Assembly (NCBI GenBank): GCA_965203095.1
Contig: OZ241877.1
Coordinates: forward strand, 1,056,001 to 1,120,000
Length of the DNA stretch: 64,000 bases
Origin: Bdellovibrionales bacterium
GTDB lineage: Bacteria; Bdellovibrionota; Bdellovibrionia; Bdellovibrionales; UBA1609
Reading direction: 5' to 3'
Shown: in pieces, positions 43,993 to 58,914 of the stretch
How the letters are laid out: each line of letters starts with the position of its first letter
Numbering within the stretch: the stretch's first letter is position 1
Notes under the pieces: generated by a model
The model's database searches: none
The model's input: only the letters and a program-made list of their open reading frames with translations
Told to the model about the DNA's origin: nothing
Program-made: the position numbers and the translations under genes

Positions 43993-44211
43993 TTTAGGGG
44001 TATGTCGTCTGCTTGTCGTCTGCTTGTCGTCTGCCAGAATACTACCGATTATGTCCTTCCGTTCTTGAAGAAAGCCTATAAAATCAATGCTTTCAGGGGG
44101 TATGTCGTCTGCCTGTCGTCTGCCAGAATACTGCTGGTTATGAACCCAATCACTTACAAAAAGCCTATAAAATCAATGCTTTCAGGGGGTATGTCGTCTG
44201 CCTGTCGTCTG
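43993..44211 (+). repeat. 89-bp-period repeat array: 52-bp conserved unit (two full copies, one partial) with nested 11-bp TGTCGTCTGCY repeats and 37-bp variable linkers
   Basis: AAAGCCTATAAAATCAATGCTTTCAGGGGGTATGTCGTCTGCCTGTCGTCTG at 44071-44122 and 44160-44211; partial copy at 43993-44033. Confidence 0.92.
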
Positions 44212-44350
44212 ATCTTTTTATGTTTTTGATCAATTCTTTGGACAAAAAGGCCCGAAACAGCTTAAAGGCTATTCCTATCTAAGTTATTATGACATCTCTA
44301 AGATAAGAATTGTTTATCTTTGGTCTATAAATACTGGTAAAGGTTAAAAA

Positions 44351-45747
44351 ATGGGTTTTTACACAAAAACAGTCTTATTGGAAAATTTTATAAAAGAGTG
44401 GGAACGAGAACAGAAAAAATGACCTCAGGAGAAAAACAAGCACTGGAATTAAAATGTCCTGGTCTTGATTTTTCAAGTTTTGATTATAAAGGAAAAATAA
44501 AAGCTTCTTTAGTTTTAGATTTTGCCAAGTTTTTAAAAAATAGTAACGAGGACTGGGTAAAGTTATCCGCAAGCAATGTTTTGTCTAAACTGAATATAAG
44601 AGATAAAAATGTTTCAGGCATTTTATTTGGAGACTTTTCTTTTAGAGTTGCACATTATAATCAAGAATCTGAACTTACAGATCAGGATGAAAAAGAAGGT
44701 TTATATTCTTTATTAAAAGAGGATTTTATCCAACATATTCAGTCATGGACAAGAACTAAAGCGATCAGTTTAGTTCCTGGTTCTTTATCTATTACAGAGG
44801 AAAAACCCTATCCTGATTCTGTTTTAAGAGAAGTCCTTGTTAATGCTGTTGCTCATTCTGCTTTTGAAAAACAAGAAAGAAAAATAACAGTGGAATTGTA
44901 TCGGAATAGGATTAGAGTCTCAAATCACTGTTCAGCTAAAGCCACAGCTTTTATAAATAAAAAGTTTTCTCAAGGTCATTTTTCTTATAATCCTTTTTTA
45001 ATGAAAATTTTAAGGAAAGCTAATTTTTCTGATGAGTTTGGAACAGGAAAAAATAAAATTTTTAAATATATGATTGAGAGCGGAAGAAGAGAACCCCTCT
45101 TTGAGTATCAGAAAATATCAGATGATTATGGTATATGGTCCGTCACTATATATAATGAACAACCAAATAAAAATTTTTTAACACTCCTTAAAAAGCTTAA
45201 AAAAATATATGAAAGTAATACAGATAAATATAAAATTTCAGCGGCCTTAGTATTATGGAGAGATAAAACTCTGGAAGAAATTTTTAATTACATAGACGAG
45301 TATCATAAAAAGCTTATTCATGAGATTCTTTCTGATAAAAATTCTCCTTTTTTATTAACAACTGAATACTCACAAAAAAATAAGAAAAAACCAGTGGCAA
45401 GAATCCTTTTAAAGAGGTGGGTAAAAGTTCAATTAGAGGGTCAGGAGTCAAAAGTGTTTTCAAAAGCAGAAGAAAATAAATTTAAAAAAATATTACAGAA
45501 CTATGCTTATGAAGAAAATCGAGGTGGTTATATAACCAACAAAGAAGCAAGACATCTTTTTGGTTTATCTAATAGTCAGTCAGAAATAGTGCAATTATCA
45601 AAATTATTTCAACAATGGGAGAAAACCGGTTTTATAGAAAAAGGAAAGAGAAGAAGAGATTGGAAAATCAAGAAAAAACCAAAATCATCAGAGCTTTCAA
45701 TTAAAGATTTATTTGAATACTATTTAAAAAAAGAAGAAAAAAAATAA
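44351..45747 (+). CDS. Compact AlbA-like + HATPase_c_4 + HTH protein (start uncertain; possible frameshift at A6, 44414-44419)
   Basis: GEKQALELK, YPDSVLREVLVNAVAH, DEFGTG, GYITNKEARHLFGL; ATG 44351 frame joins the main frame if the A6 run is A7, otherwise start at ATG 44419. Confidence 0.7.
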
Positions 45748-45837: not shown

Positions 45838-46096
45838 AGTTTGTCCAAAAGTCCCTCCAGACTTCTTAGCTCCCGTGAAAACGAGAATCCAGAAGAGTCT
45901 GCACTCGCGAAAGCAGGGGGCCTTCCCGCAAAGCCTGTTAAAAAGCCCTGTAGACTTTTTCGGCTTGCCCCCGGCAAGTTTGCCAAAAAGCTCCCCAAGC
46001 TTTTTAGCTCCCGCGAAAGCGGGAATCCAGATGGCCTCTCACGAAGCAAGTCATTCCCGTGAAAACGGGAATCCAGAAGAGTTTGCACTCGCGAAA
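45838..46096 (+). repeat. REP/dRS3-like composite repeat cluster
   Basis: Units at 45870-45891, 46008-46029 and 46050-46075 (exact ATTCCC-N8-GGGAAT at 46053-46072); 41-bp direct repeat 45872-45912 / 46056-46096. Confidence 0.9.
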
Positions 46097-46171: not shown

Positions 46172-46936
46172 ATGGAAACAACTAAGAATATTGAGTATTT
46201 TGTCCATCATAGAAGCAAACAAAGGATCCGGGACTTTGGGGAAGTTTGGACTCCTGCAAAATATGTCCATCAACTGCTGGATATGTTGAACAAATCTATT
46301 TGGACGGACACTAACACTATTTTTTTTGAGCCTACCTGCGGGCATGGCAATTTTGTTTCAGCTATAGTTAAAAGGCGGTTAAATGCTCTTTTAGGCAAAG
46401 CAAAAAAGCAGAAAATTAAAAAGCCTCATTTTTATTCTGTAGCAAACACTTTAAATAATCTTTGGGCTATAGATATTGAATATAGGAACATAGAATCTTG
46501 CAGAGGCAGAGTGCAATCTCTTGTTTTTGATTTTCTGTGGGAGCAGGAAAAAAACAAAAGCTCTTTAAATGAGTTTATAACAGAAAATAAAAGTTTTTTA
46601 GCTCATGCTTTATCTTGTATTGAGTGGCAAATACATAAAAACGAAGTTCTTTCTTGTTTGGAAACAGATATTTTGAAGGCTACGGAGGTGTCTGATAAAA
46701 CAGCTGTCAGCAGAAAATGGTTTAAAAGGAATGGGCATCATCCGATAGATTTTAATAAAACTTGGTTATGGCATTTTTCTGCTTGCAAAAAGAAAAATAC
46801 TATTCCTATTGAATACACAAAAAACTTTAAAATTGTAAGCTTATTAACTAAAAAGAGAGAAAAAATTCAAAAACATAAATCAACTGTTGAGGAGTTTGGC
46901 TTTACAAACTTTAGTTTTAAAGCCAAAGTCGCATGA
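46172..46936 (+). CDS. Short N6-adenine MTase-like subunit (motifs X and I, no NPPY)
   Basis: RIRDFGEVWTP, FFEPTCGHGNF, WAIDI. Confidence 0.75.
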   Translation: METTKNIEYFVHHRSKQRIRDFGEVWTPAKYVHQLLDMLNKSIWTDTNTIFFEPTCGHGNFVSAIVKRRLNALLGKAKKQKIKKPHFYSVANTLNNLWAIDIEYRNIESCRGRVQSLVFDFLWEQEKNKSSLNEFITENKSFLAHALSCIEWQIHKNEVLSCLETDILKATEVSDKTAVSRKWFKRNGHHPIDFNKTWLWHFSACKKKNTIPIEYTKNFKIVSLLTKKREKIQKHKSTVEEFGFTNFSFKAKVA

Positions 46937-46987
46937 AGAGAGAATTGATAAAAATTATAATATTGAAAGAAAAGGAGGGAAAGTTTT

Positions 46988-48448
46988 ATGTCAGCACAGT
47001 TAAAGCTCAATAATGTAAATACTCATGTTGTGGATATTTTAAGTAGTGTCCAAGGGCGAGATCAGCCTGTGATGAAAATGGATAAAGCTGTGGAATTAGT
47101 GAGCTGTCTTGATAAGGAGATTTTTACAAATAATGATTATGTGTTTTTTAATCCTTTTTGCAAAGCTGGAGAAATTTTATTGGCTACAGCTCTTGTTTCA
47201 ATACTGTATAAGTCTAAAAAAAAACTTGCAGATTTGTCTGCTGTTTGTAGAGAAATGTATGAAAGTGATAGATATTTTGCTCTGGCCCCGGATGAAAGGC
47301 ATTACAAGCTCAGCATTAGAACTTTTTATGGAAATGAAAAATCTCACAATAAACATTGGATCAAAAATATTAAAAACGGCAACTACTTGTCAGAAATTGA
47401 CGGAAGGCTTAACAAAGAACAATTTAACAGGAGGCTGAGGACCATGTTAGAATATATAAAAGAAAAAACTGGAAACAAAAAAATTATTGCTATAGGCAAC
47501 CCCCCTTATCAAGAAAATTATAAAGAAACAAATAGCAATACAGGAGCAAATCCTATTTATCATTTTCTTTTAGAATCTCTTATTGAGAGCAAGCGAATTG
47601 ATCAGTTTGTAATGATTATTCCTTCCAGATGGTTTGCTGGAGGTAGAGGCAAATCTCTCAGAAATTTTGCCTCAAAATTAAGAAAATCCAATCAGATAAG
47701 ACAAATATACGATTTTGAAAATTCTAAAGATATTTTTCCAACAGTAGAAATAAAAGGAGGTGTATGTTTTTTACATTGGTCTAAAAATTATAATGGGACA
47801 ACTCTATTTTATAACAGTGCAAGAGACGAAAAGGATAAGTTAAATTTATCTAAAAACAACCTTATAATAAGAGATAAGCTCTCCAGATCTATCGTCCAAA
47901 AAATAAATAAAAAAAGTATGAAATATATTTCAGAAATAGCATGGTCATGGAATCCTTTTGGTTTGTCCAGCAACTACTTTGATAAAAACTCGGAATGTCA
48001 AAAAGGAGACTTAATAGACTGTTTTACAAAAAGAAGGATAAAAAGAAAAATTGATCAATCAAAAATAAATAAAAATAAAGACAAAATAGGAACTTATAAA
48101 ATAGCTTGTCCAAAAGCCATAAAAACAGGAGGAGTGCCCTATAGAAAAGATCAGATTTTTATAATGAATCCAAAAGAGATATGCACAGAAACTTATATGG
48201 TAATTAATAGTTTTAGATCACAAAATGAGGCTAAGAGTTTTTTAAGATATTTAGCTACTGATTTTGTGAGATTTTTAGTCAGTGTGAAAAAAATCACACA
48301 AGACATTACAAAAGAAACATGGTCATTAGTCCCCTATTTTGGAAAAATAAATAAAAATTGGACTGATGAAAAGTTATTTAGATATTTCAACCTCAATAAA
48401 GAAGAACAAAAATATATTAAAAAACAAAATAAAAAATGGGCTACTTAA
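46988..48448 (+). CDS. Eco57I-type gamma-class adenine methyltransferase with target-recognition region
   Basis: FFNPFCKAGE (atypical motif I), IGNPPYQE, IIPSRWFAGG, IFPTVEIKGGVCF, CTETY, WTDEKLFRYFNL. Confidence 0.8.
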   Translation: MSAQLKLNNVNTHVVDILSSVQGRDQPVMKMDKAVELVSCLDKEIFTNNDYVFFNPFCKAGEILLATALVSILYKSKKKLADLSAVCREMYESDRYFALAPDERHYKLSIRTFYGNEKSHNKHWIKNIKNGNYLSEIDGRLNKEQFNRRLRTMLEYIKEKTGNKKIIAIGNPPYQENYKETNSNTGANPIYHFLLESLIESKRIDQFVMIIPSRWFAGGRGKSLRNFASKLRKSNQIRQIYDFENSKDIFPTVEIKGGVCFLHWSKNYNGTTLFYNSARDEKDKLNLSKNNLIIRDKLSRSIVQKINKKSMKYISEIAWSWNPFGLSSNYFDKNSECQKGDLIDCFTKRRIKRKIDQSKINKNKDKIGTYKIACPKAIKTGGVPYRKDQIFIMNPKEICTETYMVINSFRSQNEAKSFLRYLATDFVRFLVSVKKITQDITKETWSLVPYFGKINKNWTDEKLFRYFNLNKEEQKYIKKQNKKWAT

Positions 48449-48521
48449 ATAAAACTTTTGACTTAAAAAATCTGTTCAAGTTAATCAGATTGTAGCATAT
48501 AAACTATGGAGGTAAGCAGTT

Positions 48522-50939
48522 ATGAAAGAATATGAAAATTTATTTTGGGAGTTATTTAAAGCTAATGGAGAGCAAGAAATTAAAGTTATAGAACAAAACA
48601 ATAGCTTACTTCAAAATCCTGATAATTGGTCGCCTTATGGAGGGGATGATACCAACTTTTCAGTTTTTGATAATCAACAGCCGAATCCTGTTTCTGCATT
48701 GATAGAAAAAATAACAAATTCTATTGATTCTATTTTGCTTAAAAAGTGCAAGCTCAAAGACATTGATCCAACAACTATAAATGCTCCTCAGTCTATGAAC
48801 AAAGCTTTAGAACAATTTTTTGATATAAAAAATGGAGAATTAGGTGAAATAACATCTAAAGAGAGAACAGAACTGTCTAAAAGCATCCAACTTATCGCAA
48901 CAGGAGAAGAAAAAAAACCTGATCTCTTGATTTTTGACAACGGTGAAGGGCAACATCCAGAGAATTTTCCTAATACTTTCTTATCTATTAAAAGAGGAAA
49001 TAAAAATAGAATTTATTTTGTTCAAGGTCAGTTTAATATGGGATCAACAGGTGCTGTTGTATTTTGTGGAGATTATAAGTATCAGCTTATAGCTTCAAAA
49101 CAAAATCAAACAATATTTCAAAAAGAAAATAAATATAATAAAAATTCTACAGGATTTACCTTAGTAAGGAGGCATAAGCTCACTGAAATTGAGGAGAGAG
49201 AAAAAAGATATAAGTATAGTTGGTATGAGTATTTTTCAATCAAAGGGAAAATACCCTCATTTGATACAAATGATCTTGATATCGGTTTATGTGATAATAT
49301 AAAATTTAAAACAGGTGCAATAGTAAAGCTTTTTTCTTATAAATTGCCAAGAGGTTGTATGGGCACCATCCATGATGGTCTTTATCATGAGTTAAACCAG
49401 TCTCTTTATAAACCTGCTTTACCTTTTTTGTTAAGCGATAAAAGAGAAAAATATATCTATAAAAAAGGAATTGACAAGTTAACAGTTGCTGGCAATGATA
49501 TACGACTAAGGGATAAAAAAAATATTCTTGAGGAAGATTCATTTTATGCAAATTTTAAACATCAAGATATTGGTTCTGTGAAGATAAAAGCCATCTTGTT
49601 AAAAAAAGGCTCAGACAAAAAACAACAAGATAATAGAAAAAGACGCTTTATTGGGAAAAAATCAATTGTTTTTACTATAAATGGACAAGTTCATGCTTTT
49701 TACGGAAGCACTGAAATTAAAAACTGGGGATTCAATTATTTAAAAGATAGCCTTTTAATTCATGTTGATTGCACAAACATAAGAGTAAATTTCAGACAGG
49801 ATCTGTTTAAAGCCGATAGGTATTCTTTTAAAGAAACTCAAAAGTTAGATAAATTGATAGGTAAAATAAAAGATGCATTAAAGTCCAATTCAGGACTGAG
49901 GGAGGCAAATGAGAATAGAAAAAATCAATTATTAAAGGGAGCGGATGACACAAATTCGAACAATATAATAAAGAATATGCTTTCAAAAAACCCAGCTAAA
50001 AAAGAACTTATAAATTTACTTAAAAATTATGGAAACTTACTTGGAGGAAAAAATAATAACTCAAAAGCACAATCTAAAAGAAAAAAAGAAAAAAAACCTA
50101 TTTCATCCAAAAGATTCCCTTCAATATTTAAAATCAACTTGAAAGAAAAAAACGGAGAAAGAGTCAAGGGTATCCCGCTTGGAGGAAAGGGTATTATTGA
50201 GTTTGAAACTGATGTTCAAAATGATTACTTTCAAAGGCCAAATGAACAAGGAGAGTTGATATTGGAAATTCTGGGATATAATTCCAATTCATCAGAGCAT
50301 CCGAATCCTCAGCCAAGCCCTAATAAAGTGGAGGAACTTTTTAATACAACTATTGTAGGTCCTGATGATCATTCTATAAAGATCACTTTGGAACCAACTC
50401 AAAAATTAAATGTTGGAGATAAAATTCAATTAAATGCAAAATTATCTTCACCAGAGGGAGATATGGAAGCTATTTTTTATGTCAAAATTAAGAAAAAAGG
50501 AGAGACTAAAACAAAAAAAGCTAAAGAATCTCAAAAATTTAATCCTCCTCCGTTGATAAAAATTTCAAAAAAAGACGATAAATGGGTAAAAAATAAAGAT
50601 GAAGACTGGAATGTGGATGATTGGGACGATAGTAGCATCATACATATAATCACAGCAGAAAATAAGATAGATGCCATAGCTATTAACATGTCAGCTAATA
50701 TACTTAAAAAATATATTTCATCAAAAAAAGTTAAGGATGAAAAAACTTTGGAAGCTTTTAAGAGTAAATATATTTCTCAAATCTATTTGCATGGCTTGTT
50801 TTTATTTCATTCTATAGAAAAAAATAAAAAAGACAATGACGAGGATAGTGAGAGTCATGTATCCAAAATTTTTAAAAGCTATGGAGAGGCTTTGCTTTAT
50901 TTGGATCTCAACGAAGAGTTATTAAAATTTATTGAATAA
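48522..50939 (+). CDS. MORC-like GHKL ATPase
   Basis: ALIEKITNSID (N box), IFDNGEG (G1), KRGNK...QGQFNMGSTG (G2), TGAIVKL; RBS GGAGG. Confidence 0.75.
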   Translation: MKEYENLFWELFKANGEQEIKVIEQNNSLLQNPDNWSPYGGDDTNFSVFDNQQPNPVSALIEKITNSIDSILLKKCKLKDIDPTTINAPQSMNKALEQFFDIKNGELGEITSKERTELSKSIQLIATGEEKKPDLLIFDNGEGQHPENFPNTFLSIKRGNKNRIYFVQGQFNMGSTGAVVFCGDYKYQLIASKQNQTIFQKENKYNKNSTGFTLVRRHKLTEIEEREKRYKYSWYEYFSIKGKIPSFDTNDLDIGLCDNIKFKTGAIVKLFSYKLPRGCMGTIHDGLYHELNQSLYKPALPFLLSDKREKYIYKKGIDKLTVAGNDIRLRDKKNILEEDSFYANFKHQDIGSVKIKAILLKKGSDKKQQDNRKRRFIGKKSIVFTINGQVHAFYGSTEIKNWGFNYLKDSLLIHVDCTNIRVNFRQDLFKADRYSFKETQKLDKLIGKIKDALKSNSGLREANENRKNQLLKGADDTNSNNIIKNMLSKNPAKKELINLLKNYGNLLGGKNNNSKAQSKRKKEKKPISSKRFPSIFKINLKEKNGERVKGIPLGGKGIIEFETDVQNDYFQRPNEQGELILEILGYNSNSSEHPNPQPSPNKVEELFNTTIVGPDDHSIKITLEPTQKLNVGDKIQLNAKLSSPEGDMEAIFYVKIKKKGETKTKKAKESQKFNPPPLIKISKKDDKWVKNKDEDWNVDDWDDSSIIHIITAENKIDAIAINMSANILKKYISSKKVKDEKTLEAFKSKYISQIYLHGLFLFHSIEKNKKDNDEDSESHVSKIFKSYGEALLYLDLNEELLKFIE

Positions 50940-51092
50940 GGACAAAAATGCTTAAAATTGGATCTTTATTTTTATATCAGAGAGAGGCTTAACGAGGGAA
51001 GAGTTTGTCTAAATTGGTTGCTAAAACATTGTTGTTAGAGAGAAGATTTGAGGATTTTATTTTTAATTTAAAATAAATATAAGGGAAGTATA

Positions 51093-52082
51093 ATGACTTT
51101 GTTGCAAGAATATTATAAATTAAAAAACAGCTCTAAAGCTCAATACGAGAAATTGTTGAAAAAGCTTTCTAATCAAACAACAAGCCGTGAATTTTTTACT
51201 TTAAATAATGGCATATTTGATTCAAAAAGAAAAAAGTTGCATAATGATATTATTGAAAAATATCTTAAAAAATATCCCTCTCAACATAAACCTTATATTC
51301 ATTTGATATTGGGTTCTATCGGCTCAGGAAAAACATCTCTTAAAGATTCTGTGATTAAGAAAAAAGAAATTCAATCTTTTCTCTACATTAACTTTGACGA
51401 ATTAAAAAACCAACTTCCAGAATATGAAATATTAAAAAAACTCAACCCTAAAAAATCTGCCCAATTTGTGCAATCCGAATCCGCTAAATTAGCTGGAACT
51501 TTATACAAAAAAGCCATTCAAAAAAAACTGAATATCATTTATGAAAAAAATATAAGATTAAATAAAGAAGGTGGCTTACATCTAATTTTTGAAATGAAAA
51601 CTGCATTTCAAAAAAATTACAATGTCTTCGTTCATGTTGTGTTTTTAAACAGTTATCAGGAAGCTTGGAGGAGAGTTCAGTTGAGATACGATAAAATAAA
51701 AAGATATGTTCCACAACAATATGTCAAAGATACATTTGAAGATCTATTTCCTAATCTAAACAAGTTATTAAAAGAAAATTTTAAGAAAAAATACTTGGTT
51801 AAATTCTGGTATAATGGAGAATGGGAGAAGAGTTTTAGCAAACTCAAGGAAGCTCATACAGTTGGAGTTATTTCTTTCCAAAATAAGAAAAACTTAAAGT
51901 ATCAGCCAAAGGATGATTTCATCTTAACATTTAATGGAATAGAAGGCTATGATTTTTATTATCAAGGATTTTTTCTAACAAAAATAAGATTTCTTCCAAA
52001 GTCTGCAAAAAACTCTTTAATGAAACTAAAACGGTTAAAAAATGCACTGAATCTTTTAGATTATCATCACCATCGGACTTGA
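51093..52082 (+). CDS. Zeta toxin family P-loop kinase
   Basis: LGSIGSGKTS, YINFDELKNQLPEY, VQSESA, AWRRVQLR...RYVP. Confidence 0.78.
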   Translation: MTLLQEYYKLKNSSKAQYEKLLKKLSNQTTSREFFTLNNGIFDSKRKKLHNDIIEKYLKKYPSQHKPYIHLILGSIGSGKTSLKDSVIKKKEIQSFLYINFDELKNQLPEYEILKKLNPKKSAQFVQSESAKLAGTLYKKAIQKKLNIIYEKNIRLNKEGGLHLIFEMKTAFQKNYNVFVHVVFLNSYQEAWRRVQLRYDKIKRYVPQQYVKDTFEDLFPNLNKLLKENFKKKYLVKFWYNGEWEKSFSKLKEAHTVGVISFQNKKNLKYQPKDDFILTFNGIEGYDFYYQGFFLTKIRFLPKSAKNSLMKLKRLKNALNLLDYHHHRT

Positions 52083-52144
52083 ATGACGCATAGTGTTAAT
52101 ATAGGATGAGATAAAAATGTTTATAATTAAAAAAAGGAGGAAAG

Positions 52145-52318
52145 ATGAAAAAGAAATATTCAGATAAAGAGATTAAAAAAGCTTTTTCTAAAACGGCCAC
52201 AAAACAAGCTATAAAAATGTGTAAAGAGATGATCGAAGATCCTCAAGCCAGGAAGCAGATTATTACTTTTATTAAAGCTGTAGACGGCAAAAAAATTAGA
52301 AACAAATCAGGAGTTTAA
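52145..52318 (+). CDS. Small helical protein (57 aa), candidate antitoxin; not in the ORF track
   Basis: RBS AAGGAGG 52134-52140, ATG 52145, MKKKYSDKEIKKAFSK...SGV*. Confidence 0.65.
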   Translation: MKKKYSDKEIKKAFSKTATKQAIKMCKEMIEDPQARKQIITFIKAVDGKKIRNKSGV

Positions 52319-52497
52319 AAGCTTGTTTTTTTTAAATCTCACTGTGGTTTTTTCCTCTACTAAGGTTTTTTGAGCCTTACATGAACCTCAATATAAATAA
52401 ATCCTTCTTTTTAACAACTAAGCTAATTTATTCAACTTCCTTTTTAAGTGACCAATCTATTTTATCATGAATCAAAATAATTTTAGATGTCCATTTT

Positions 52498-53415
52498 TTA
52501 GGTGCTAATCCACTTTTCGCTATCATTTTGAAACAATGAAGGTTGTAAACTTGATATTCTTTTATTAGCTATTTTTATATAATTTTTATTTATCTCATAA
52601 CCTATAAATCGCCTATTGTTTTTTAATCCAACAACAGCTGTAGTGCCACTCCCCATAAAAGGATCTAAAACAATATCATTTTCAAAAGAATAAAGTTGCA
52701 TAAGACGAAAGGGCAACTCCTCAGGAAATGGGGCTGGATGACCTATTCTTTTAGCAGATTCTGTGTTCATATTCCAAATAGATTTTGTCCATTCAACAAA
52801 CTGTTCTTTTTGAATTGTGATTTTTTTGTCCTGTTTTTCTCTTTTATAAGTTCCTTTTGAAAAAATCAAAATATATTCATGCACATCTCTTAAAGTGGGA
52901 TTAGAAGGGGAACACCAGCTCCCCCATGCTGTAGAAGTCCCTGATCCAGCAGACTTATTCCAAATAATTTCTCCTCTCATTAAAAAACCTATATCTATCA
53001 TCATTTTAGAAATACAATCAGAAAGAGGGATATAAGGTTTCCGGCCTATATTTGCTATATTGATACAAGCTCTTCCTCCATTGACTAAAACTCTATATGT
53101 TTCTGAAAAGACTTTATTAAGAAAATTAAGATACTCTTCTAAAGATAAATCTTCATCATAATCTTTTGAAACATTATAAGGAGGAGAAGTTATCATTAAA
53201 TGGATGGTTTTATCCGGCAATTCCGACATCTTTGTTGAGGATTTTAAGAAGATTCGATTAACAGCAGATTCTGGAATTGAGCCTTCTATTTTGCTTTGTG
53301 TATCTTCTTTAAAATCTAAATTTTTATACAACTTTGATTCATAAAACAAAGAAGAATCATGCCCTTGTCTTCCTGAGCTTCCAAAAGATTGAGTTCCTGT
53401 TTTGCCTTTTTTCAT
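52498..53415 (-). CDS. Site-specific DNA methyltransferase (beta class, probably N4-cytosine)
   Basis: ITSPPYN, HPAPFP, VLDPFMGSGTT. Confidence 0.92.
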   Translation of the reverse strand: MKKGKTGTQSFGSSGRQGHDSSLFYESKLYKNLDFKEDTQSKIEGSIPESAVNRIFLKSSTKMSELPDKTIHLMITSPPYNVSKDYDEDLSLEEYLNFLNKVFSETYRVLVNGGRACINIANIGRKPYIPLSDCISKMMIDIGFLMRGEIIWNKSAGSGTSTAWGSWCSPSNPTLRDVHEYILIFSKGTYKREKQDKKITIQKEQFVEWTKSIWNMNTESAKRIGHPAPFPEELPFRLMQLYSFENDIVLDPFMGSGTTAVVGLKNNRRFIGYEINKNYIKIANKRISSLQPSLFQNDSEKWIST

Positions 53416-54299
53416 AAAGTCTCTTCAATTAACTGTAAAAACTTTTCTGCTTTTCCTTCTATATTTTTTTCTCTATTTGATTTAGATATAATTTGTCCTA
53501 ATTTTCCCTTCATAACCATTGCAGAAAAATAGATCTTATGGGAATGAATTAAATTTCCTAAAAATTTTTCTAAGTCTTCTTTATTTTCAATAGTTTGAAA
53601 ACCTTTTTTTGGAGTATTTTTAATTACCTCAGTTTTTGAAGGCACTGAAGGATTAAGTGACAAAAAGCCTTGTATAATCCCTAAGCTCTTTAAAGAATCC
53701 ACTTTCTTTTCATAGTGTTTTGTGATAGGTGAATTTCCTAAAACAACCAATGGAATGTTTCTTGCACCTGGGTTGGCTACTCTTATGCTGATTAACTTTC
53801 CTATAGCCTTCAACATGGAATCAGACCTTAATAAAGAGGGATTTCCTTTATGAGTTGTATAATCTCCTATCCATTTAACAATTTTCTCAGTTTTATCAAA
53901 TTCATAGTTTGAAAGTATACTCATTTTTATTTCGAAAATTACTTTTATATCTTGACATTTCTGTTGTTGCTTATCACTTCTACAAAAAGCAATATCCGCA
54001 CTTGATTTCTTGGATAATCCAGCTTCCGGACATATTACATTATTTACAGCATATAAATCAAACTTACGGGCTATTGAAGAAAGCAACTGCTGACACCATT
54101 TTTCTGTAAATTGTCCAATAAGTGAATTTCTGCTTTGTAGTGTATGCCCTGGTGATTTTATATTTTTTGGAATGTAGGCTAAGTATTTATTATCTATCCA
54201 ATAAAATAGTTTTTTTTCAGAAAAATCCTTTCCCTTTCCTAAAAAATGTTGAAAAAATTGTTTTTCAACCATATTATTCCAAAGTTTTGTTGTTTGCAT
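53412..54299 (-). CDS. Putative type II restriction endonuclease (PD-(D/E)xK)
   Basis: GQFTEKW, ADIAF...FEIK; coupled (ATGA overlap) to the MTase. Confidence 0.7.
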   Translation of the reverse strand: MQTTKLWNNMVEKQFFQHFLGKGKDFSEKKLFYWIDNKYLAYIPKNIKSPGHTLQSRNSLIGQFTEKWCQQLLSSIARKFDLYAVNNVICPEAGLSKKSSADIAFCRSDKQQQKCQDIKVIFEIKMSILSNYEFDKTEKIVKWIGDYTTHKGNPSLLRSDSMLKAIGKLISIRVANPGARNIPLVVLGNSPITKHYEKKVDSLKSLGIIQGFLSLNPSVPSKTEVIKNTPKKGFQTIENKEDLEKFLGNLIHSHKIYFSAMVMKGKLGQIISKSNREKNIEGKAEKFLQLIEETL

Positions 54300-57843: not shown

Positions 57844-58914
57844 TTATTTAAGTTTTCGAAACTCATCAATGCTGATAAGCTTTCCCTTTCTTTTTACACT
57901 CCAAAAAGCCCAACCATTATGGCTGGCTTTGTTTAATATTTTAGCACTGACTTGGTGAATGGAGCCAAAAAATTTTCCGTTTCTTAATGTTCCATCAGCC
58001 ATAACTGTCGCACAATGCTTTTTGTCTTTTGAATATAGTGTTTCGCCGGTTTTTATAGACTGGCTTTCCACCAACTGGCCAAAAACAATTTTAGGTGAGG
58101 TCTGTTCTTGATATAAAAAAGTGAGTTGTTTATCATAAAATTTAACCTTTTTTATTCTCTCCCTGGCTATTTTTACATATTTTTTTTCTCTCTCAAAGCC
58201 TATAAAATTCCTGTTCAGCATTTTGGCCACAGCCCCTGTAGTGCCGGAACCAAAGAAGGGATCTAAAACCACATCTCCCTCTTTTGAACTGGAAAGGATC
58301 ACTCGCCTTAAAAGCTCTTCTGGTTTTTGTGTGGAGTGGGCTTTTTTGCCTTCATTGTTTTTTAGCCTTTCATGGCCACAGCAGATGGGCAAACACCAAT
58401 CACTTCGCATCTGTTTATCATCGTTAAAAGCTTTCATGGTTTTGTAATTAAAAGCCCCTTTGGCATTTTTAGATTTACTGGCCCATATTAAAGTTTCATG
58501 AGCATTAGTGAATCGAGCCCCTCTAAAATTAGGCATAGGGTTGGTTTTAATCCAGATCACATCGTTTAAAATCCAAAAACCTAAGTTTTGTAAAATGGAT
58601 CCTACCCTAAAAATATTGTGATAAGAGCCTATCACCCACAAGGTCCCGGAAGTTTTTAGCACTTTTTTACACTCTTCAAGCCAAGATTTTAAAAAACAGT
58701 CGTAATCTTTAAAGCTTGCAAATTGGTCCCAATGATCTTTTACACCGTTAACTTTTGTCATGTTGGGCCTAAAAAGTTCTTGCTGGAGTTGTAAATTATA
58801 AGGAGGGTCGGCAAATATCAAATCAACAGATTCTATTGGCAATTTTTTAAGCTCTTTAACACAGTCCCCAGGAATAACTTTATTTAAAAAAGGGGCCAAC
58901 TGGGATTTACTCAT
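57844..58914 (-). CDS. CcrM/M.HinfI-like adenine DNA methyltransferase
   Basis: FADPPYNLQL, WVIGSYHNIFRVG, NPMPNFRGARFTNAHETLIWA, DPFFGSGTTG, C-terminal GSIHQV...NGWAFW. Confidence 0.9.
   Translation of the reverse strand: MSKSQLAPFLNKVIPGDCVKELKKLPIESVDLIFADPPYNLQLQQELFRPNMTKVNGVKDHWDQFASFKDYDCFLKSWLEECKKVLKTSGTLWVIGSYHNIFRVGSILQNLGFWILNDVIWIKTNPMPNFRGARFTNAHETLIWASKSKNAKGAFNYKTMKAFNDDKQMRSDWCLPICCGHERLKNNEGKKAHSTQKPEELLRRVILSSSKEGDVVLDPFFGSGTTGAVAKMLNRNFIGFEREKKYVKIARERIKKVKFYDKQLTFLYQEQTSPKIVFGQLVESQSIKTGETLYSKDKKHCATVMADGTLRNGKFFGSIHQVSAKILNKASHNGWAFWSVKRKGKLISIDEFRKLK

Follow-up and report, generated by a model that had tools for sequence, protein, structure and literature searches.

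A DrdVI-type split-methylase locus that lacks its nuclease gene and carries a GHKL ATPase gene, likely as an independent passenger

Type IIG systems with a two-part methylase are known under the name "split methylase", and in the available text of PMC10113651 the cloned pair M1-M2.MaeIV gives single-strand m6A at GCACY in E. coli. DrdVI is composed of M1, M2, and a fused GIY-YIG translocase (PMC4996451). Its methylase, M1-2.DrdVI, is encoded on the plasmid pDrdVI, is a type IIG enzyme that forms m6A at GCAGCC, and has been cloned in E. coli (PMC6430315). Literature naming DrdVI or split methylases was sparse in a search whose scope left out most subscription journals, REBASE, and supplements; within that scope the name was found in print, but the M1/M2 mechanism set out below was not.

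GHKL ATPases dimerise and clamp DNA on ATP binding. According to the main text of Iyer, Abhiman, and Aravind (2008, PMC2292703), MORC and paraMORC ATPases adjoin SF2 helicases and methylases; they have a GHKL and S5 module, are patchy and mobile, and stand beside such genes or alone. The available parts of two further sources describe GHKL ATPases that act against phage and may be encoded as single genes, namely VcSduA, a paraMORC3 Shedu protein (PMC12137116), and Tiamat (10.64898/2026.09.30.754977), both with a C-terminal PD-(D/E)xK nuclease. In the SspABCD systems, whose effectors are SspE or SspFGH, 83.9% of sspBCD sets come without sspE or sspFGH, according to the available text of PMC8092258. 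The term GHKL occurs 0 times in the main texts of PMC10853773 and PMC12914056 (supplements outside scope) and 0 times in the available text of PMC12839542. No paper was found that links the GHKL family described here to Ssp or DrdVI-type loci in a search that left most subscription journals aside, and supplements may list members. In other words, the methylase pair is already known, and no description of the ATPase family came up in the literature searched.

The locus lies in the window, the whole stretch of 64,000 nucleotides that was analysed, on a 1.78-Mb contig of a genome (G000) that is 90% complete. Three + strand ORFs stand in tandem, as the first-pass annotation had described, with intergenic gaps of 51 bp (gene 1 to gene 2) and 73 bp (gene 2 to gene 3). 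The GC content of the locus genes is 27-33%, versus 38% genome-wide. The features are as follows, with R denoting the nuclease-translocase gene of complete loci.

46172..46936, + strand: predicted M1 subunit of a DrdVI-type split m6A methylase, 254 aa; SAM-binding half with motifs X, I, and II, without NPPY
46988..48448, + strand: predicted M2 subunit, 486 aa; degenerate SAM half with the invariant K59, catalytic NPPY, and an Eco57I-type target-recognition domain
48522..50939, + strand: paraMORC-like GHKL ATPase, 805 aa, assigned by homology and predicted fold; likely passenger in the gap between M2 and R
51093..52082, + strand: zeta-toxin-like P-loop kinase (Pfam PF06414, 1e-22); likely second passenger in the M2-R gap
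52145..52318, + strand: 57-aa ORF, directly 5' of the R gene in relatives; its stop codon is the end of homology to R-bearing loci

Sequence comparison shows that genes 1 and 2 correspond to M1 and M2 of a split methylase already in print, that of the DrdVI/MaeIV type IIG family, and the earlier description of a candidate uncharacterised module does not stand for this pair. Gene 1 matches M1 on pDrdVI (32% identity over 116 aa, E 7e-18) and gene 2 matches M2 (30% identity over 341 aa, E 6e-45). The third pDrdVI gene is matched by the R of a relative, G119 (29% over 880 columns, 1e-90), and significant matches thus exist for M1 and M2 here and for R of relatives. At 30-32% identity, the window's lineage is a distant sub-branch with respect to DrdVI. 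Further evidence comes from annotated plasmids, where gene 2 homologues sit in an operon that runs from a short methylase-like gene through an Eco57I-type gene to a DEAD-box/GIY-YIG gene; one of these operons is that of pDrdVI (CP031164) of Deinococcus wulumuqiensis. M2 homologues that matched solely from NPPY onward had been considered as half-length proteins, a reading dropped when those on the four plasmids checked all proved full-length or R-fused.

The motifs of the two proteins complement each other. Gene 1 carries GEVWTP (motif X), FFEPTCGHGNF (motif I), and AIDI (motif II) and has no NPPY; its top PADLOC match is MTase_II (8e-7). Gene 2 carries NPFCKAG and GNPPY and matches Pfam Eco57I (PF07669, 2e-16). 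On pDrdVI the motifs are divided in the same way, M1 having GEVFTP, EPACGSGNF, GIEL, and GDAL without NPPY, and M2 having DPCTKSGVFL plus NPPY. The complementarity reported by the first-pass annotation is therefore real and family-wide, and a short M1 with motifs X/I/II but no NPPY, next to an M2 with the motif I Lys, NPPY, and a recognition domain, is common to DrdVI, MaeIV, and the window. All eight invariant columns of the M1 family (8/8) are retained in gene 1, and M1 and the N-terminal portion of M2 are paralogues (hhalign 97%). The pattern [DNS]PP[YFW] was present in 3 of 80 short-gene (M1) rows, a set contaminated by a few mis-binned fragments. Motif I of gene 2, once called atypical, is instead the family norm: K59 is invariant across 54 aligned M2 proteins, M2.DrdVI reads DPCTKSG, and only the D-to-N change is rare (1/82 rows). 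The motif II Asp is replaced by Thr-Glu in most members of the M2 family.

The window differs from DrdVI and MaeIV in that R is absent and the GHKL, zeta-like, and 57-aa genes follow M2. In relatives, R is a T5orf172/GIY-YIG nuclease with an SF2 translocase. The window's locus holds no helicase or nuclease gene, as had been remarked before, and no nuclease is visible because the R gene is missing there. R was also absent from G000 in a tblastn search with 54 R proteins, in a profile search with working M1/M2 controls, and in a further genome search, and R remnants sought in the window at 50900-52600 gave only negative scores. Since G000 is only 90% complete, R could lie elsewhere in the genome. 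With R found neither at the locus nor in this 90% complete genome, and with M1 and M2 assigned by sequence to DrdVI-type protein families, the locus is an incomplete system.

Is R missing by design or by loss? DNA homology to R-bearing loci breaks off at 52318, the stop codon of the 57-aa ORF, and copies of this ORF that are 51-63% identical lie directly upstream of R in three relatives (G002, G111, and G119). An assembly error at this junction is unlikely because contigs without differing letters span it in two samples of one study, one of which is possibly the source. M2 is present in 14 of 109 family genomes (G000 included). The 13 other loci have R in 11 cases and GHKL in one, and of the two that are R-less, one contig stops inside M2 and the other locus is broken. 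Among the best 80 of 563 metagenome matches to the M2 alignment, M1 was found in 68, R in 64, and the GHKL gene in 0; 15 of the 16 R-less loci end at most 1,324 bases from M2, and one (L173) continues without R across 7,985 bases. The profiles were built from these same loci, and identity is anchored by Pfam T5orf172 and ResIII and by PADLOC REase_MTase_IIG. Counts from separate searches may share genomes, and relatives are not independent. R is missing at the locus by loss, not by design, and a deletion is the likely cause. The first-pass annotation had allowed that the methylases might be truncated remnants of a known type IIG locus; this is approached as far as the missing R goes, but M1 and M2 are full length.

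What does gene 3 encode? Its motifs and predicted structure mark the product as a real ATPase of the GHKL and S5 type, with 1,431 homologues found. The predicted protein (pLDDT 82) consists of a GHKL domain (~41-323), an S5 transducer domain (to ~471), a flexible linker, an Ig-like domain (530-661), and an alpha/beta C-terminal domain (662-805). The GHKL motifs are E62/N66, D139-G141-G143, G169/G174, and G265. Across 134 members, E62 and N66 are conserved in 132, and D139, G143, G169, G174, G265, and R433 in all 134. Position 266 in motif IV is Ala in the window protein (12/134 members) and Ser/Thr in 121; 11 of the 12 Ala carriers belong to the window gene's clade. Residues 41-471 of the model align with GRP94 (Z 17.5, rmsd 4.5, 312 aligned), SMCHD1 (Z 15.5, rmsd 5.2, 324 aligned), MutL (Z 15.3, rmsd 4.8, 293 aligned), and MORC3 (Z 15.2, rmsd 3.9, 295 aligned). 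The Ig-like domain has a common fold (best Z 8.3, rmsd 3.5, 99 aligned). Residues 662-805, modelled alone (pLDDT 85.7), gave a best fold match of Z 5.0 with none clear and no Foldseek match at 0.001, a result that shows neither a new fold nor the absence of a nuclease.

Sequence searches with the GHKL protein in Pfam, NCBIfam, PADLOC, and PDB returned nothing useful, no member of a 41-sequence family alignment matched a relevant PADLOC or NCBIfam model, no phage record matched, and the ESM Atlas gave no clusters other than unnamed or HATPase_c_3 ones. A match to Csm2 (2e-4, in 1 of 41 members) was taken as chance. Only seven polar columns in residues 475-805 are at least 85% conserved, and they form no PD-(D/E)xK motif; a loose version of this pattern occurs in 44 of 134 members, the window protein not among them. 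These results agree with the earlier view of an 805-aa GHKL ATPase that has no recognisable nuclease, and the idea that its C-terminus might be a known nuclease found neither a PADLOC match nor a clear structural match for 662-805.

The protein is MORC-like in its GHKL and S5 module and in its occurrence beside methylases or alone. However, it is not a MORC, because the S5 signature GhXhhpXXRhl was found in 0 of 134 members (residues 325-475). The paraMORC2 ExxxH, paraMORC4 TIR Hx[ST]xD, and paraMORC5 HxH motifs, as given in the main text of PMC2292703 (supplement member lists outside scope), occur in 10, 2, and 4 of the 134 members, respectively, and in none of these forms in the window protein. 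The family therefore differs from MORC and paraMORC1-5, as that text describes them, in having neither the MORC signature nor a conserved ExxxH, HxH, TIR, or PD-(D/E)xK motif, and in combining an Ig-like domain with an unmatched C-terminal domain. Likewise, it differs from the Shedu and Tiamat proteins as described in the available texts, since the PD-(D/E)xK motif of their C-terminal nuclease is not conserved in it. In its mode of action, it would be a clamp of the MORC/MutL type.

The genomic contexts of the GHKL family are varied. The best 80 of 584 GHKL loci have an ssp gene within the fetched flank in 37 cases and sspB, sspC, and sspD all together in 32; SspD was found in 43 of the genomes behind them. 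M1 or M2 was found within the fetched flank in 0 of these best 80, and in one (L021) an R fragment lies directly upstream of the GHKL copy. A tree built from the 134 proteins that reach 700 aa, with shorter pieces left out, resolves an Ssp-linked sister clade (44 rows, of which 40 have ssp genes in the flank retrieved; support 100) and the window gene's clade (22 rows, SH-aLRT 99). The sister clade adjoins sspBCD at the usual effector position of the Ssp systems (available text of PMC8092258), but the ATPase matches no SspE, SspF, SspG, or SspH model and the window copy lies outside this clade. Members of the other clades have no conserved neighbours and stand alone among housekeeping genes (86/103 flanking ORFs scanned). 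Because the family occurs alone, beside sspBCD, or, in the window's clade, with M2/R, its link to the split methylase is optional.

Two members of the window's clade are seen in the slot after M2, those of the window and of G119. A further 16 share a longest-contig size with an M2 homologue and one with an R homologue only (matched by eye). Equal contig size may point to linkage; megabase contigs show no adjacency, and 90% clustering may hide matches. Of the 17 contig sizes common to M2 and GHKL, nine fall below 31 kb and 11 recur among those of R homologues. The operon-linked members span down to about 40% identity. The link to M2/R thus recurs, and R usually comes along. The reading that the trio never co-occurs was dropped on the strength of the G119 locus and the equal contig sizes, and the expectation that the three genes would be found together elsewhere is borne out, directly in G119 and indirectly in the other cases.

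The place where the GHKL gene sits is itself informative. The M2-R gap is longer than 300 bp in 8 of the 11 family loci and in 14 of 78 loci overall, and it may hold a GIY-YIG gene, a gene for a 150-184-aa unknown protein, a zeta-like gene, or YhcG; it is an exchange site for accessory defence genes. In G119 the order is M1, M2 (into which a DDE transposase is inserted), GHKL, GIY-YIG, a zeta-like gene that is truncated, the 57-aa ORF, and R. The window's GHKL protein is 70% identical to the copy in this same slot, and the window arrangement equals that of G119 minus the GIY-YIG gene and R. The zeta-like protein is 54% identical to the G111 copy, which lies in the M2-R gap of a locus that has no GHKL gene. 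The 57-aa ORF was considered as a zeta antitoxin, a reading ruled out because G002 carries the ORF without zeta. The ATPase gene and the zeta-like gene are each likely to be an independent defence passenger of the M2-R gap.

These findings converge on a model, to which a probability of about 0.75 is given, in which the window holds homologues of the DrdVI-type M1 and M2, R has likely been deleted, and the two genes after M2, GHKL and zeta-like, likely ride in the M2-R gap as independent passengers. M1 would dock on M2 and supply the SAM site, forming one enzyme that would place m6A on one strand of a short asymmetric site, in the manner of DrdVI (GCAGCC) and MaeIV (GCACY). Where the locus is complete, R would move along the DNA and cleave sites that carry no mark. 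With R lost, the pair would still write its one-strand mark and nothing would restrict; in other words, methylation would be kept and restriction lost. The GHKL protein may act as a dimeric, ATP-gated clamp that closes on DNA and gives defence by itself, without a nuclease of its own and without needing M1/M2, and its gene likely moves between loci through recombination in the conserved M2 and R sequences on either side.

The window's clade is strongly tied to the operon, and its persistence there could nevertheless mean function rather than hitch-hiking. The GHKL protein might be a working accessory of the split methylase that binds M2/R or reads m6A and helps or replaces R, permitting its loss, a reading close to that of the first-pass annotation. 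In keeping with this, a link to M2, to R, or to both exists for 19 of the 22 clade members (2 seen, 17 through equal contig sizes), contigs of 7,645 and 8,237 bases just suffice for M1-M2-GHKL-R, M1, M2, and GHKL are all intact in the window, and the main text of Iyer 2008 (PMC2292703) sets MORC/paraMORC with SF2 helicases and methylases. However, of the 17 contigs that have both M2 and GHKL, 11 have an R homologue as well, which makes the form without a nuclease exceptional. Moreover, the GHKL gene is absent from 12 of the 14 family genomes that carry M2 and is found in 4 of 109 family genomes and 6 of 384 order genomes; a full M2 was absent from all five (5/5) other GHKL-bearing genomes tested; G118 has a clade member and no M2 in its genome; other clades stand alone; and the correlation of GHKL distances with those of R is weak (Mantel rho 0.30, p 0.09, 13 pairs). 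An accessory role is thus unlikely, and a bolder version of it, in which a nuclease-free clamp family has been recruited by two DNA-marking systems that are unrelated, SspBCD (phosphorothioate) and the split methylase (single-strand m6A), and here replaces the lost R as effector by trapping unmarked DNA, a bacterial silencing in the style of MORC/SMCHD1 without cutting, is somewhat more doubtful.

Could the GHKL protein work in trans with the phosphorothioate system SspBCD of the genome, as its sister clade may, its position in the methylase operon being accidental? G000 does carry sspBCD about 180 kb away (C1:1288765-1294014), as do G006 and G119 in their genomes, and the Ssp linkage of the sister clade fits. 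But SspD is found in 15 of 109 family genomes regardless, G118 is without it, an SspD match turned up in only 4 of the 31 genomes from which L004-L034 come, the ssp locus of G000 has its own SspE-like DUF262-HNH gene, and the window protein falls outside the Ssp clade, which together make this very improbable. The zeta-like kinase as effector of an abortive system gated by methylation or by GHKL is less credible still. Although its gene lies 3' of GHKL in the window and in G119, the G119 copy is truncated, the G111 copy occupies the M2-R gap of a locus with no GHKL gene, such a kinase gene occurs in only 2 of 13 other family loci, and among the best 80 of 584 GHKL loci a zeta-like match appears only at L031 and L058. 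The first-pass annotation had proposed a dedicated methylation-guided effector, GHKL or zeta; this is not the best reading, because each of the two genes is found in the absence of the other and of the methylase.

The preferred reading, that of independent passengers beside a methylase pair without R, makes the locus a decayed known system that carries an uncharacterised passenger ATPase. This is a modest result, in that the window is accounted for by a split-methylase system of a known kind without its nuclease; what the window adds is a DrdVI-linked GHKL clade and the loss of R. The division of motifs between M1 and M2, together with the invariant motif I Lys of M2, offers a concrete working model for split methylases. 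The GHKL family is widespread, with its 1,431 homologues, has no name in Pfam, NCBIfam, or PADLOC as far as searches with the window protein go, and has two separate clades tied to DNA-marking systems.

The place where the relatives of this genome carry R, the T5orf172/GIY-YIG nuclease-helicase gene that follows the split-methylase half M2, is occupied in the window by a type II-like gene pair convergent to the M1/M2 operon. The features surrounding the operon are as follows.

44003-44231 and 45845-46096, short repeats on either side of the gene for a 449-aa protein
44398-45747, gene whose 449-aa product carries a RecG-C/HATPase_c_4 domain
52145-52318, + strand, unannotated 57-aa ORF
52498-54299, - strand, type II-like gene pair
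57844-58914, - strand, a further N6/N4 methylase, presumably CcrM-like, carrying a RAMA domain at its C-terminus

Within the pair, the N4/N6 methylase matched PADLOC MTase_II (4e-123). Its 295-aa partner, which had no matches in Pfam, PADLOC, or NCBIfam, is probably the endonuclease of this methylase. The 57-aa ORF is kept directly 5' of R in three relatives (G002, G111, and G119) and is possibly a regulator of R.

The 449-aa protein has three distant paralogues in the same genome, and no copy of its gene adjoined M1 in the relatives' loci. The repeat copies 5' of M1 are TTCCC-N8-GGGAAT-like and similar to dRS3-type hairpins. Contig branching at the repeats flanking the gene was seen in many strains.

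Near homologues of the window's GHKL ATPase gene were often interrupted by stops or transposases (loci L007, L016, L021, L028, L029, and L030, and genomes G006 and G711), a sign that these genes turn over fast. In the sister clade tied to sspBCD, the GHKL gene and sspBCD have recurring partners, all unnamed (L035-L086). A DndB/DGQHR protein and a 174-aa ORF recur in 13-16 of the loci; the others are a DUF262-only protein with SIR2 or a Ser/Thr kinase, a ParB-like trio, and a GHKL-histidine kinase fusion. The genome holding the window carries an uninterrupted run of ssp and other genes elsewhere.

C1:1288765-1299150 (L089), sspB-sspC-sspD together with genes for a 320-aa unknown protein and a 666-aa methylase-specificity fusion, plus an SspE-like DUF262-HNH gene

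In some loci (L132, L204, and L205), M2 and R form a single protein of 1,330-1,450 aa. A standalone M1 is kept in L132 and L204 despite the fusion, and this persistence suggests that M1 remains necessary even when R and M2 are fused.
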